Assembly (NCBI GenBank): GCA_963847445.1
Contig: CAWJZV010000015.1
Span: forward strand, 1-64,000
Source: an uncultured delta proteobacterium
GTDB taxonomy: Bacteria; Desulfobacterota; Binatia; UBA9968
Direction of reading: 5' to 3'
DNA length: 64,000 nt
Shown: one piece after another, positions 3,400 through 38,124 of the stretch
Layout: each line of letters starts with the position of its first letter
How positions within the stretch are numbered: the stretch's first letter is position 1
Translations under genes and position numbers: made by a program
The notes under the pieces: generated by a model
Database searches by the model: none
Seen by the model: the letters and a program-made list of their open reading frames with translations, nothing else
What the model was told of the DNA's origin: nothing

Positions 3400-4230
3400 A
3401 TGACCGGAACTTTCGTCGTAGTTGCTCTGCTGGTGCTTCTGGCGGGACTCGCCGCCGCACTCTATCGCCAATGGCGGCAGAACCGGACGCTGAAGGCCCA
3501 GCTCGAAGCGATCGCCAGCGACCTCCAACATCTCCAGCAATCCTGCTCGCGCTTTGTTCCAGCCGGTGTGCTGCAGCACCTCATCGCCGACGGCGTGCAG
3601 TCGGCTCTTGAGGCGGCGGCCCCAGAGCGCAAAGTGGTGACCGTTCTGTTCGCCGATCTCGTCGGTTCCACCGCGATGAGCGACCGGCTCGAGCCGGCCG
3701 TCCTGGCGCGTGTGCTCAACGGCTACTTTCAGCGCATGAGCGATGCCATCCACGAGCATCGCGGCCATGTCGCCCACTTCCTGGGCGACGGCATCGTCGC
3801 CTATTTCGGCGCGCTGCAACCGAATCCATGGCAGTGCAACGATGCCGTGCGCGCGGCCCTGGCGATGCGCGCGGCCCTCCGCGAATACAATGTCGAGCTC
3901 GGGCGGGAGGGGCTGCCGTTGCTTGCTCTGGGGATCGGCATCGACCGCGGTTTGGGGCTTGTCGGCCTGGTGGGCTCGCGCGAGCGCATGGAGTATGACT
4001 TCGTCGGACGCACCGTGAACGTGGCCGCGCGCGTGCAGACGCTCACGCGCATCCATCAGGCGGACATCCTCGTGACCGAGGCGCTGAGCGCCGAGCTCGA
4101 CGCGCGCTTCGTGCTCATGCCCATGCCCGCCGAATTCGTAAAAGGCATCGCCGAGCCCGTGGTTACTTACGCCGTGCGTGAAGGGCCATCGGCCGCCGCT
4201 CCATCGGCTGAGGAGGCAGGAGACAGATGA
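3400..4230 (+). CDS. Class III nucleotide cyclase with N-terminal TM helix
   Basis: VLFADLVGST, FLGDGI, VNVAARVQ, VKG motifs. Confidence 0.92.
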   Translation: MTGTFVVVALLVLLAGLAAALYRQWRQNRTLKAQLEAIASDLQHLQQSCSRFVPAGVLQHLIADGVQSALEAAAPERKVVTVLFADLVGSTAMSDRLEPAVLARVLNGYFQRMSDAIHEHRGHVAHFLGDGIVAYFGALQPNPWQCNDAVRAALAMRAALREYNVELGREGLPLLALGIGIDRGLGLVGLVGSRERMEYDFVGRTVNVAARVQTLTRIHQADILVTEALSAELDARFVLMPMPAEFVKGIAEPVVTYAVREGPSAAAPSAEEAGDR

Positions 4231-4245
4231 CCGGAACCGCGGCCT

Positions 4246-4270
4246 TGTCAGACTTGCCTTAGTCTACTAA
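4246..4270 (+). repeat. REP-like motif copy (TGTCAGACTTGCCTTAGTCTACTAA)
   Basis: 23/25 identical to 38100-38124; related to 9687-9708. Confidence 0.7.
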
Positions 4271-4429: not shown

Positions 4430-4784
4430 CCGGCCATTTATGGAATTGAATTGAGATGTCCATACGACCGGCGCGGGGAGAAGGACCGAAGTCTTAGATT
4501 GTAATGAGTGTTATGTCTGATCATCCCGCTGGAATTTTCAAGCGGTGATGACTTCATCGTCCCAACTCGACGCTAAGGTGCATTCCAGAAGATTGTAGTG
4601 AGTACTATGTATGACCCGAATCCTCTTTCGGCATCGACCGTGGCAAAAGATTATTGCCGCCAAATCATTGACTCACAGGCAGTGCGATTGATATGGTCGC
4701 GTCGAAGTAAATCTAGAATGCCCGCGTCAGCGCGACTTCTGCTCCTTTGAAATGATTCGTAGCTCCACCCGGCGTGGACAGCCG

Positions 4785-6369: not shown

Positions 6370-6571
6370 CGAAAACGCCGAAATCAGCAGAGACGCAGCC
6401 GACGCCGGAGCGCCCGTTCTTTCGGGCTATCCGGCGCGGCTGTGACGCGCTGTCATTTTCAGTCGCGGATGTCCTGTATGAACCATTCGGTCGAATCTCC
6501 CGTCTCAGGCCGGAGCGCTTGGCGAACTCGTAGACTTTGCCCGCCGCTCGCTGTATGTCAGGGGCCGCATT

Positions 6572-6612
6572 TCTTGCATTGCGACAGATGTGTGCGTGCA
6601 AGACCTGGCCCC
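6572..6612 (-). repeat. REP-like imperfect palindrome GGGGCCAGGTCTTGCA...TGTCGCAATGCAAGA
   Basis: Shares TCTTGCA(T/G)TGCGACA and CAGGTCTTGCA with 43164-43186. Confidence 0.65.
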
Positions 6613-6619
6613 AAGATGC

Positions 6620-6803
6620 GGCTCCGAGCGGATGGAGTTTGCCTTTGTCGGACGCACCGTGAACGTGGCCGCGCGCGTGCAGACGCTCACGCGCATCCAT
6701 CAGGCGGACATCCTCGTGACCGAGGCGCAAAGCGCCGAGTTCGACGCGCGCTTCGTGCTCATGCCCATGCCCGCCGAATTCGTAAAAGGGATCGCCGAGC
6801 CCG
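6620..6803 (+). repeat. Partial duplicate of the cyclase 3' region (~3973-4160)
   Basis: Near-identical DNA (GRTVNVAARVQTLTRIHQADILVTEA...VKGIAEP); no start codon context. Confidence 0.92.
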
Positions 6804-6851
6804 AGGGAAATCAGTGTCTACCATCGGAATTTGCAGGTAGCGGGACAGCGC

Positions 6852-7036
6852 AGAATTTCTTGTAAAGAAAGTTCTGACGAGGGTGTGGCTCTTGGGGTCA
6901 GTGGCCTGTTTATTCAGGCTCACACAGCCTGAAATGCCGCCCTCGTCACCTGCATCATCCGAGGGGTCGACCGGGATGGTGCCATATTCTCACCCGAATA
7001 CGTGGCTCTGTAAGTAGACGAGACCGAAGGATGATG
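6852..7036 (+). ncRNA. Putative IS110 bridge RNA
   Basis: 5' hairpin (6852-6875), stem 6875-6889/6936-6948 with internal loop, stem 6953-6960/7029-7036 with internal loop; loop sequences match the flank and the element end. Confidence 0.75.
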
Positions 7037-7732
7037 AAAACGATCTTGTTTCTACCGAAGGAGGAGCTACGTGTCAGAAGAAAAAGCAATCGAGTTACGA
7101 GTCAGTGTGGACGTGGGGAGTCGTCGTCACAGTGTGGCGATGGGATTATCGAGCGGCGAAGTGCTCGAAGAATTTGAGATCGAGCACCGGCCCGAAGGAT
7201 TTGCGGAGTTTTTCTCCCGCATCGAGAAGCATCAGAAGACCAAGAGCTGCGCGGTGGCAGTGGCCATGGAAGGTTACAACGGCTATGCCCGGCCGTTGGA
7301 CAGCATGGTTCGCCAGCACGGCTATCGGCTCTACAATTTGAACAACCTAAAATTTGCCCGGTTCAAGGAGATCTTCCCGGGAGGAGCCAAGAGCGACCGG
7401 ATCGACGCGCGCAAAGGCTTGGAGCTGTTTCAGCTCAGCGATCATCTACCGCTGGCCAAAGAAGTACTGCAGGAAGTAAAGGGTACGCCCCAGGAGAACG
7501 AAATACTCAAGCGACTGACGCCGGCGTCGGCGCCGGTTAGTCAACGAGCGGGTGCGGGTGGTGAACAGTTTACAGGCCGATCTCCAAGCGGTGTGTCCGG
7601 GATTGTTAGAGATCACGGGGGAAGCGAGCAATCAGTGGTTTTTAAACTTCCTGTTAAGTGCGCAGACCCTAGCGCAGCTTTCCCGACTCCGGCACATCAC
7701 GTTGATGAAGATACCGCAGGTGGGGGTGAAGT

Positions 7733-8553
7733 GTGAGGGGAGCCTGATCGGCAGTTTTGGTTGATTGTATTGCCATCTCATATTCCTCTGGGGACCGGTA
7801 GCCCAGAGCCGAATGCAACCGTTTTTTGTTGTACACCTCCTCGATGAAATGGGGAAGCCTTTGAGCTACATCCTCAAAGGTCTCATAGTTCGACAAATGC
7901 ACTTCCTCGTACTTCAACGTCTTGAAGAACGATTCCATGTGAGCGTTGTCGTATGGATTGCCCGTTCTCGACATACTGATCTTCATGTCGGCTTGTTCAA
8001 GCAGCGCCACATACTCACGGCAGGCATACTGCACGCCGCGATCAGAGTGATGAATACACCCAGCCCCAGGGGTGCGGTTGGCCAGGGCCACTTTCAGAGC
8101 TGCCACGCACAGCTCGGCATCGATGCGCTTGGAGATCGCCCAACCGATCACCTTGCGCGAGTAACGGTCCAGTAGGGCTGCCAGATAGACAAACCCCTTT
8201 GAGATCCGGATGTAGGTGATGTCGGCCACCCAGACTTGATTGATTCCGGTTACCGTCAGTTCTGCTAAAAGGTTCGGATAAACCGGGTGGCCATGATTGG
8301 AGTCGGTGGTGGCGATCTTAAAACTCTGCCAGCGGATGGGAAATAGCTGGTATTTTCGCTGGACACGGCGAATCCGTTTGTCGTTGACACAGATCCCCTC
8401 ACGGCGCAGCTGCTTGCCCAGGCGCCGATAGCCGTAACCAGCAAACTCTCCCTGAATCCGTTCGAGATGATCACGCAGTCAGACGTCGCTGCACGACAGC
8501 TCCGATTGGTCGGTGATCGGCTTGTAGTAATAACTGCTGGCTGCCAGCTTCAT
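7733..8553 (-). CDS. IS3 OrfB DDE integrase (in-frame TGA at 8479-8481)
   Basis: [43 protein letters not shown]. Confidence 0.88.
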
Positions 8554-8903
8554 GATTTCGAGCCCTTGGGCAACCGAGCCAAACTCTCCGCGGTGATTAC
8601 GGAGGTACTCACGCTTTTGTGCCGCCGTAGCCAATCCCCGAGTTTTTTTAACTGCGTGTTCTCCAGGTACAGCTCGGCTAGCTTTTCCTTGAGTTCACGA
8701 TTCTCCCGCTCCAGGTTCTTTTCTCGTACCGAGGGCGATCCCTCCAGAGCACCTTGTCGGGCTTGATGGCGCCACCGATCGATCACGCTGCCCGAGATCT
8801 GATACTTGCGGCTGGCGGCGCTGACCGTCAGCAGACCCGATTCCACTTCGCTGACGATCTGCTGCTTGAACCCTGTTTCAAACTTACGTCGCTGTTTTCC
8901 CAT
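8550..8903 (-). CDS. IS3 OrfA HTH protein
   Basis: RRKFETGFKQQIV...W, followed by a coiled coil; ATGA overlap with orfB. Confidence 0.88.
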   Translation of the reverse strand: MGKQRRKFETGFKQQIVSEVESGLLTVSAASRKYQISGSVIDRWRHQARQGALEGSPSVREKNLERENRELKEKLAELYLENTQLKKLGDWLRRHKSVSTSVITAESLARLPKGSKS

Positions 8904-10199
8904 CGACCGACTCCTCCTGGCGGACCATTCTACCCGCCGGTTGAGCCGATCTCACTCCCCTCTAATCCCTACTGTTTCCCTCCAGTCAATGGGGCGCACT
9001 GCGAAGATCGAGGACTGGCAGAAGCGAGCCCACTTCAGTGACGAAGTAGAGTGGGTAGGCGAGATGATCCAAGAGGACGCCCGGCGATGTCTGGAACTCG
9101 ATGAGAAGATTAAGCGGCTACGCAACAAGATTGCAGAGATTGCCAAAGACTCCAAGATCGCCAAGACCTTACGATCGATACCGGGGTTCGGAGCGGTGTG
9201 CACTTCGGAATTGGCTGGCGAGATCGGCACCGTCGAGAGATTTACTTCCGAGGGGAGCCTTGCCTTGTATCTCGGCATGGCAACGTTGGACGACAGTTCG
9301 GGCACGTATCAGGGCACCAAAGCGCCCAAGCAAGTTAACACAAGGGCTAAAGCGGCGATGATGATCGGCCTGGATCGACATCGAAAATACGTTCCAGAGT
9401 CGCAGAGATACTATGAAAAGAAACGAGCAGAGGGAAAGAAACACAACCAGGCGATTCGGGCGCTAGGACGACACCTGTGTCGGATCATTTACCGGATGCT
9501 CAAGGATGAACGTGAGTACGAGGTGCGTCCCGAAAAAGTGAATGCTAAGACCAAGGTCGTTCCGCTAGCGTGCGTTAAAACGCAAATACGGAGGTCGAAA
9601 AGATCAGGCATAGAAACAAAATAACAAAATCTACAAATAGAGCGCGAAAAAACATCATCACCGCTTGAAATTCCCAGCGGGATGTTCAGGCTTGAATAAG
9701 TTAACTTATCTGACGAAGCACAAGATTAATATATTCAAGCCTGACACCTTTGCGCCCACCTTTGCGCCCACAAGCATCACCGCGACGATCAGGATTGATA
9801 AGACAGCAGCTCTCTTCATTGCCCACCTCGTTCGTGAGCAGGCTTATCACGAACATTGCAGTTGCGAAAAGTGTTATTAACGGGAGAAGCGGAACCAGAT
9901 TCGCCGAGGAGGAAAGGCGAAATTCGAGGTTGCATTGAACTGAACGACGCTTCAGTTCAATACAACGCGATTTGCCGGCAGTCGACATAGCGCGGAGCAG
10001 TTAGTCAGCGGTGCGCTAGGTCGCGAACAGGCCGTTCGTCGGTTCTGAGCAGAATCAGCTCTGGCTGAGCTGGAGCCCCCACTCATCAGACGACCGATGA
10101 TGCACTGCTGAAGCGCTCTTCGCAGGACTACTTCTCTCGTTCAAGTTGCGACCATTTTAACGGATAACGCCCATAGAATTTTAGTTAAATAGAGAGTGC

Positions 10200-38099: not shown

Positions 38100-38124
38100 T
38101 GTCAGACTTGCCTAAGTTTACTAA
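38100..38124 (+). repeat. REP-like motif copy
   Basis: 23/25 identical to 4246-4270. Confidence 0.7.

Follow-up and report, generated by a model that had tools for sequence, protein, structure and literature searches.

According to the accessible portions of two reports (Durrant et al. 2024, PMC11208160; Hiraizumi et al. 2024, PMC11208158), IS621 of Escherichia coli, an insertion sequence (IS) of the IS110 group, is guided by a bridge RNA and makes use of handshake pairing, its promoter is rebuilt across the circle junction, and its donor is more conserved than its target. IS1111 elements, the group with seekRNA (Siddiquee et al. 2024, PMC11187229), carry the RNA in a long right end (RE) and possess long subterminal inverted repeats. 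To place a further locus among these systems, we examined a stretch of 64,000 nucleotides (nt) from an uncultured delta proteobacterium (assembly GCA_963847445.1, contig CAWJZV010000015.1, positions 1–64,000 of the forward strand; hereafter, the window). Positions 6817–9687 on the plus strand are very probably a decayed IS110-group insertion sequence with a DEDD/Ser recombinase, the left end (LE) of which encodes an IS621-type bridge RNA. The anatomy, boundaries, covariation, and family membership of this element are documented below; within a known RNA-guided family, it counts as a new and remote member that is dead in this genome. A reading made earlier from the letters of the window (the sequence-only reading) had likewise recognized an IS621-type IS110 element with a bridge RNA in its left end, the first loop addressing the target and the second the element's own ends, and this assignment held.

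All IS110-group hallmarks on which DNA letters are informative were found at the locus. As in IS621, a DEDD RuvC-like domain is accompanied by a Tnp domain with a Ser-Gly motif, a long LE is combined with a short RE (252 and 61 nt here), and the RNA lies in the LE as a 5′ stem-loop and, after it, a pair of stem/internal-loop modules, the first with a variable and the second with a conserved loop. The left target guide (LTG) reads as the top strand and the right target guide (RTG) as the complement, both spanning the 2 nt of the core; the letters of the donor loop agree with the RE-core-LE junction; a circle-junction promoter is predicted (here from sequence alone); and putative handshake bases would pair with noncognate DNA. 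In contrast to IS621, the recombinase has 429 rather than 326 amino acids (aa), with remote similarity (E 0.0019) confined to the C-terminal domain, the core is TC rather than CT, and the target is TTGGGG-TC-AGGCT rather than ATCAGGC-CT-AC. Nor is the target of the window element an abundant repetitive extragenic palindromic (REP) sequence in its host, and the window copy is inactivated. The ISCro4 transposase (Protein Data Bank [PDB] entry 9t56) is the second-best solved relative (E 0.0028, C-terminal domain) and was compared by that match alone. The IS1111/seekRNA systems share the recombinase family and RNA-guided target choice but differ in that the RNA here lies in the LE and the RE measures only 61 nt, so that the feature that sets the IS1111 group apart is absent from the window element. 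The bridge-RNA predictions per ISfinder element (Durrant et al.) may already include relatives of the window lineage.

Boundaries, core, and structure of the left-end RNA

The noncoding features of the element and its right flank are as follows, in window coordinates.
6817–6818, plus strand: left core copy TC, the left target arm (LT) ending at G6816 (sole dinucleotide common to both junctions)
6819–7070, plus strand: left noncoding end (LE), 252 nt, encoding the bridge RNA, with TACCAT (6819–6824), the −10 half of the predicted circle-junction promoter, first (homology of copies begins here)
6841–6875, plus strand: 5′ stem-loop of the bridge RNA, exact pairs ambiguous in the window copy (minimum free energy [MFE] fold; homolog folds)
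6876–6947, plus strand: target-binding loop module, outer stem 6876–6889/6936–6947, inner hairpin 6901–6923 (fold, compensatory changes, and guide covariation)
6892–6899 and 6926–6932, plus strand: target guides, LTG UUGGGG (6892–6897) with core-binding UC (6898–6899) and RTG AGCCU (6926–6930) with GA (6931–6932) (guide/flank covariation)
6933, plus strand: putative handshake base A6933 of the target-loop module
6953–7036, plus strand: donor-binding loop (DBL) module, outer stem 6953–6960/7029–7036, inner hairpin 6981–7006 (fold and covariation)
6972–6978 and 7014–7018, plus strand: left donor guide (LDG) CGGGAUG and right donor guide (RDG) GUAGA (match to the RE and complementarity to TCTAC, respectively)
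7019, plus strand: putative handshake base C7019 of the donor-loop module
9625–9685, plus strand: right noncoding end (RE), 61 nt, with a −35-like TTGAAA (9665–9670) and the left donor arm CGGGATG-T (9678–9685) (sequence)
9686–9687, plus strand: right core copy TC (shared junction dinucleotide)
9688–9748, no strand assigned: right flank with the right target arm (RT) AGGCT (9688–9692) and the palindrome TCAGGCTTGAATA ... TATTCAAGCCTGA (sequence and repeat searches)
4517–4551, minus strand: isolated remnant, 35 nt long, of a right end from the same IS family, ...CCAGCGGGATGA-TC-AGAC, with GGGATGA before TC (sequence match)

The element had previously been taken to begin at 6846 and to use a CA core. 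Comparison of copies places the true left end at G|TC|TACCATCGG, with the core at 6817–6818, 30 nt upstream of 6846, and with unrelated sequence before it. Homology among copies begins at 6816/6817, a partial second copy on contig 7 of the same genome is still alignable 30 nt upstream of 6846, and homologs in 21/61 related genomes begin at window-equivalent positions 6813–6816 (homolog tallies such as this one include the unpublished genomes G005, G085, and G088, and locus L011 appears in two displays; no claim rests solely on these). Eleven oriented copies share a common left end GTCTACCATCGG... (GTCTACC...) and a common right end ...CCAGCGGGATG(T/A)TC (GGGATG(T/A)TC), with unrelated DNA outside, the junctions taking the forms ...G-TC-TACC on the left and ...GATG(T/A)-TC-(A/G/T)G on the right. 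TC is the one dinucleotide that every full-length copy examined has at both of its junctions, which makes TC (6817–6818 and 9686–9687), and not CA, the core. Since the left boundary had been misplaced by 30 nt and the core misread, the left half of the empty site reconstructed in the sequence-only reading was wrong as well.

A search of 31 same-genus genomes with the two flanks recovered no orthologous empty site, because the left-flank ortholog (genome G004) and paralog (window 3981–4270) diverge from the window after 6806. This flank includes a segment of ∼180 nt that is duplicated in the window, where 3981–4162 resembles 6625–6806, and repeated in relatives (three copies in G003:C2, and also G004:C5, G019, and G027). 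We interpret the segment as the 3′ terminus of a gene resembling adenylate/guanylate cyclases, and Pfam gave no family for the open reading frame (ORF) at 6590–6865; the segment copy adjoining the IS is truncated at 6806 as compared to its paralog and the G004 ortholog. The remnant at 4517–4551 shows that a second copy of the element was once present ∼2.3 kb upstream. Solo left-end remnants are short and variable in length and thus do not form a fixed repeat unit.

The MFE fold of 6846–7070 yielded a 5′ hairpin and two stem/internal-loop modules (z = −3.28). It contains the outer stem 6876–6889/6936–6947 and inner stem 6901–6908/6915–6923, the counterparts of those drawn in the sequence-only reading, whose placement of the loop strands (TTGGGGTCA at 6892–6900 on the left, AGCCTGA at 6926–6932 on the right) was also sound. 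In 23 distinct close homologs, the 5′ region always folds as a hairpin despite differing letters (mean z −1.57). Across 27 close copies, the IS621-like structure leaves 99.2% of cells paired versus 30–46% with slid partners, and the compensatory pairs among them number only two, each belonging to the first module's outer stem. A covariance model (R1), a check suggested together with the fold, was built from the alignment of these close copies and matched over its full length just ahead of the recombinase gene in 65/74 distant loci (six of 80, namely L087, L089, L092, L106, L147, and L164, are duplicates and were excluded from the search). The proteins of the distant loci are 44–85% identical, and their records are labeled as many different phyla. 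In the resulting alignment, 91.1% of cells are paired and 30/42 pairs show compensatory changes, as compared to 32–58% and 8–15 pairs in slid controls, which upholds the outer and inner stems of both modules.

Correspondence of guides with flanks and element ends

As read from its letters, the target loop specifies TTGGGG-TC-AGGCT, since its two strands are UUGGGG-UC (6892–6899) and AGCCU-GA (6926–6932). The target string proposed in the sequence-only reading, TTGGGGTCAGGCT, was right, and guides covary with flanks; at the junctions of other copies, the guide-specified target fits, with TC in place of the CA core then assumed. Junction rows numbered 59, and removal of those without a readable guide or 12-nt flank left 47 LT and 14 RT junctions. 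Loci L011 and L031 (unpublished genome G005) were excluded from the guide/flank, structure, and distant-subfamily counts, and the second LE match of L013 was removed from the RT count. At the 47 left junctions, G occupies position −1 in 47/47, −3 in 42/47, and −2 in 36/47, while position −4 holds G in 32 cases and A in 13, and the commonest base at −5 is T (21). Left guide/flank identity was 197/282 versus 186.4 ± 3.6 after shuffling, with 42/10,000 shuffles reaching the observed value; the flank carries A at −4 next to 7/11 guides with A at this position, and next to 6/35 guides with G. The 14 right junctions form 57/70 Watson–Crick pairs versus 48.3 ± 2.6 (8/10,000 shuffles), or 66/70 with wobble pairs, as exemplified by AGUCU guides at AGACT, GGCCU at GGGCC, and GGCUU at AGGTC via two wobbles.

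The correspondence is stronger across distant subfamilies than within the close family, with matches of 4.22/5 versus 2.93 ± 0.19 for LT (15 guides, 46 junctions) and 3.21/5 versus 2.33 ± 0.17 for RT (26 guides, 46 junctions), each attained by 0/10,000 shuffles. The RT AGAGTAAGT was predicted from the guide and found (9/9 matching), a guide CUCUG occurs with flanks CTCTG and a right arm AAGTT, and a Chlamydiae-labeled group combines the left arm ACCCT and guide GCCCU with the right arm GGGCC. A Methylococcales-labeled group has T at −2 in 6/9 sites where the guide has G, which is a miss. In the window copy, the right side forms 7/7 pairs, core included.

One single locus and one set of identical copies are also of note. 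Locus L038 (G077:C160; ∼443 nt) has an internal deletion that spared the two ends, the bridge RNA, and some 70 nt of gene sequence, and it lies at the site ATTGGGG-TC-AGGCTTCC; this single example is possibly a nonautonomous element. Nine identical copies in a Methylococcales-labeled metagenome-assembled genome (MAG; L114–L122) have left arms AGGTG-TC and an LE lengthened in its 5′ part by ∼110 nt, among them a palindrome that contains TTATCCAC words, which we take to be DnaA-box-like.

In the donor loop, the LDG CGGGAUG (6972–6978) equals the right end at 9678–9684, as the sequence-only reading had noticed, and the RDG GUAGA (7014–7018) is complementary to TC-TAC (6817–6821). Donor-loop strands and element ends are nearly invariant across the whole lineage. 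Three LDG and two RDG cases covary: LDG GGAAUG with RE GGAATG (one locus), LDG CUGGG with RE GTGGG (two loci), and RDG AUAGA with LE TCTAT (two groups). Judged by base complementarity, C7019, which follows the RDG, could pair with the invariant G at −1 of the target and not with donor T9685, and A6933, which follows the RTG, could pair with donor T9685 and not with the target's G. This putative pattern would fit the handshake rule of IS621 by analogy; in the Chlamydiae-labeled group, the DBL handshake base is A and LT −1 is T.

The element ends also hold the parts of a predicted promoter. TTGNNN lies exactly 17 nt before the core end in 58/59 distinct right ends, the 59th having TTGAAA at the same spacing, and TACCAT is the commonest hexamer after the core (100 regex matches); a promoter TTGNNN-N17-TACCAT would thus form only across a circle junction. 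RNA-library contigs from relatives (88–99% alike; four runs from three studies, compared with 6700–7735) cover 6816–7078 in run X15 and 6814–7078 in run X18 and are patchy elsewhere. Such contigs show neither strand, ends, nor level and may stem from contaminating DNA, and they say nothing on expression; no circle joint was seen among the contigs of the four runs over 6700–7735. One contig of run X16 has a loose end at 6921, where the first half of a relative's target loop is followed by target-like ...TGTGTCAGGCTTGACAG; rearrangement of a remnant or chimeric assembly of the contig may account for it.

Alternative readings of the locus and its targets

The sequence-only reading had aimed the element at a dispersed, REP-like repeat, GGGGTCAGGCT, of its own genome. 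At ≤1 mismatch, GGGGTCAGGCT has one match in the window, and 50/100 shuffles do as well; the whole 7.19-Mb genome holds 0 exact copies. At ≤2 mismatches, the 13-mer has 109 genome matches versus 153 for the reversed control, and it is unenriched in four same-genus genomes. BLAST of the right flank and the repeat at 38100 against the genome returned only a 25-nt match at 4246–4270 and short chance words, and the longer motif TCAGRCTTGNNTWAGT has three genome copies, all in the window (4247, 9685, and 38101). The 17/22 match between 9687–9708 and 38103–38124 was confirmed by hand count. The dispersed-repeat idea was nevertheless rejected after these four tests (window shuffles, 13-mer counts, genome search, and longer motif), and so was a REP-like target family in this genome; a REP-like reading fails in the window genome and holds only for a minority of targets elsewhere.

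Some details of these motifs are recorded here in their own right. One TCAGRCTTGNNTWAGT member sits downstream of the duplicated cyclase fragment (3981–4162), and the TTGTCA within TCAGRCTTGNNTWAGT looks like a −35 box. In a genome of another family (G041), the 13-mer motif is ∼two-fold enriched (186 versus 86). Pairs of CGGGTCAGGCT and GGGGTGAGGCT recur there on several contigs, inverted and ∼700 nt apart; these pairs are probably another repeated element, the ends of which explain the two-fold motif excess in that genome.

An element starting at 6846, with a CA core and aimed at a dispersed GGGGTCAGGCT REP-like family of the genome, can claim a CA after GCGGGA at 6846, another before GGCT at 9687, and a right flank that resembles two other window sites. 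It is nonetheless exceedingly improbable and is refuted by the 30 nt that all copies share upstream of 6846, with unrelated sequence before them, the shared TC at the junctions, and a motif that is neither exactly repeated nor enriched. We also consider it very improbable that the structured LE is a mere leader regulating recombinase translation or mRNA stability, with the loop/flank matches arising as by-products of a site preference set by the protein. The position of the LE directly upstream of the start codon and a Shine–Dalgarno sequence would suit such a leader, but the loop letters covary position by position with flanks and element ends, which a leader model does not predict, and architecture and family fit IS621, whose RNA guidance was shown. 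Less remote, though still unlikely, is a target choice that is only partly RNA-coded, in which the protein or DNA structure senses a near-fixed left arm, GGGG, together with a hairpin context, and only the right arm is freely reprogrammed. In most distant subfamilies, the LTG is (U/A)UGGGG-UC while the RTG varies widely, and the right flank of the window copy is an arm of a palindrome, the second arm reading GGTG-TC-AGGCTTGAATA on the minus strand; palindrome arms are also found at the empty site in genome G008 and in two Nitrospirota flanks. An inverted copy of the core plus nine bases occurs within 200 nt at 9/61 right junctions versus 3 and 0 in controls. According to the accessible part of a preprint (bioRxiv 10.64898/2026.03.19.712850), ISPpu10 of Pseudomonas putida is an IS110 element with a bridge RNA, its natural targets lie beside a stem-loop, and a “dual-match” logic is reported for it. 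The palindrome arms among the targets of the window element's family resemble that description, and the family differs from it in that such context accompanies only the minority of right junctions just given. Against partial coding stand the 52/61 right junctions without a nearby inverted copy and the fact that where the LTG differs (CUCUG, GCCCU, AGCGG, and GAGGG), the left flank follows, as pure RNA coding predicts.

The preferred reading, an IS621-type bridge RNA with the guides as assigned above, has several observations weighing against it. An Rfam scan of 6500–10,000 at E ≤ 1 matched no bridge-RNA family. The distant alignment (A4) was fitted to the model and leans toward structure, and the shuffle tests ignore the kinship of copies and lean the same way. 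Helices 4 and 5, drawn halfway along the donor loop, have weak support (61–67% paired) and, going by the alignment, are probably not real, and RNAalifold, applied to the close set, preferred another pairing within the donor module, between CAUCAUC and GAUGGUG. The LDG has no visible pairing with the second core base or the core-adjacent base, and in a Gallionella-like group only two RT bases beyond the core match. The left flank of the window copy itself agrees with the LTG at 3/7 positions by Watson–Crick pairing, or 5/7 with wobble (hand count); the window insertion is possibly a tolerated or “half-match” event. The RNAalifold pairing was set aside, since the wider alignment supports the IS621-like outer and inner stems.

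State of the recombinase, proposed life cycle, and meaning for the lineage

Within 6600–9900 on the plus strand, the IS110-type recombinase gene is split in three pieces. Its parts, compared to the intact copy L007 from a same-genus genome, are as follows.
7071–7735, plus strand: N-terminal pieces of the recombinase with the DEDD RuvC-like domain, GTG start at 7071 (PF01548; L007 alignment; tblastn matches at 7071–7511 and 7570–7734)
7736–8998, minus strand: IS3-family element inside the recombinase gene, its own ORFs in pieces (HTH_Tnp_1, rve, rve_3, and rve_2; absent from L007)
8999–9624, plus strand: C-terminal piece of the recombinase, Tnp domain with the Ser-Gly motif (PF02371; alignment to IS621 chain 8wt6 via L007)

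L007 is 96% identical to the window element, has both LE and RE intact, and encodes 429 aa. PF01548 matches window 7071–7520 with E 1.5e-15 and L007 with E 2.6e-21, and PF02371 matches window 8995–9624 with E 4.7e-13 as well as the intact 429-aa relative. The L007 protein, scored in place of the broken window copy, reached 174.7 bits against NCBIfam NF033542 “IS110 family RNA-guided transposase” (cut-off 140). A phmmer search of the PDB with the L007 protein gave no match at E ≤ 0.001; at E ≤ 10, IS621 and ISCro4 came out on top, as the closest solved structures. SSG of L007 is aligned with ESG of IS621 chain 8wt6, and within a weakly aligned stretch, E and the D..D motif also have IS621 counterparts.

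As compared to L007, the window copy carries 1263 extra bases (7736–8998) and one extra base near 7519 that shifts the recombinase frame, which bears out both the interruption by an IS3-type element and the frameshift reported in the sequence-only reading. With tblastn, matches of the L007 protein in the whole assembly (7.19 Mb, 91.8% complete) were confined to the pieces in the window and, on contig 7, a remnant of 37 aa. The window copy is inactive, and no working recombinase of its family is present in this assembly; with a frameshift, an IS3 insertion in the recombinase, and no intact paralog in the assembly, the copy can no longer move. Of the “naturally programmed recombinase” once proposed for the locus, the bridge RNA stands and the activity does not. 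The nested IS3-family element has broken reading frames, corresponding to ORFs 8550–8903, 8265–8474, and 7669–8229, and no clear target duplication was seen at its junctions (7736–8998); an Rfam match to CRISPR-DR57 inside it was dismissed as chance.

In relatives, many copies keep the left end with the bridge RNA and are cut at varying 3′ points, with no common breakpoint seen, and solo left ends of 30–50 nt are frequent (L008, L027, L036, L039, L043, L044, L046, L048–L050, L015, L016, L032, L035, and L052–L057). At L130 (660–1500), in a Burkholderiales-labeled MAG, three bridge-RNA modules stand in tandem as truncated copies nested in each other, one in the gene and one in the donor loop of the preceding copy.

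For active relatives, transcription, RNA–DNA pairing, and recombination are proposed by homology to IS621. The element would excise as a circle in which RE is joined to LE across the TC core, and the resulting promoter TTGAAA-N17-TACCAT would drive transcription of the LE. The LE RNA would fold into the 5′ hairpin and two stem/internal-loop modules, the guides of the first loop together specifying the target TTGGGG-TC-AGGCT, while in the second loop CGGGAUG would pair with the right end and GUAGA with the core and left end (TC-TAC) to specify the donor. In the putative handshake, C7019 would pair with the target G at −1 and A6933 with donor T9685, and recombination at TC would leave the element inserted with TC on both sides.

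For the window genome, the outcome is an ordinary annotation, namely a dead IS nested with an IS3, while an active copy and a REP family are both absent. That an IS110 left end encodes a bridge RNA proved recoverable from raw sequence and survives the covariation test once the boundaries are correct. A more far-reaching picture, which we regard as doubtful, is that of a cross-phylum lineage of larger (∼429-aa) bridge recombinases with almost frozen donor ends and donor loop, an almost frozen GGGG-TC arm, and a drifting right guide, in which target choice may add palindrome or hairpin recognition and position −2 may act in the handshake; if true, nature would here offer a “half-programmable” bridge system that has a structural gate built into it. 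The lineage, a remote relation of IS621 whose records bear the labels of many phyla, provides natural data with good sampling (∼100 junctions, with TC as core, covariation of the handshake type, and a predicted junction promoter that is conserved) for a family of genome-engineering interest.

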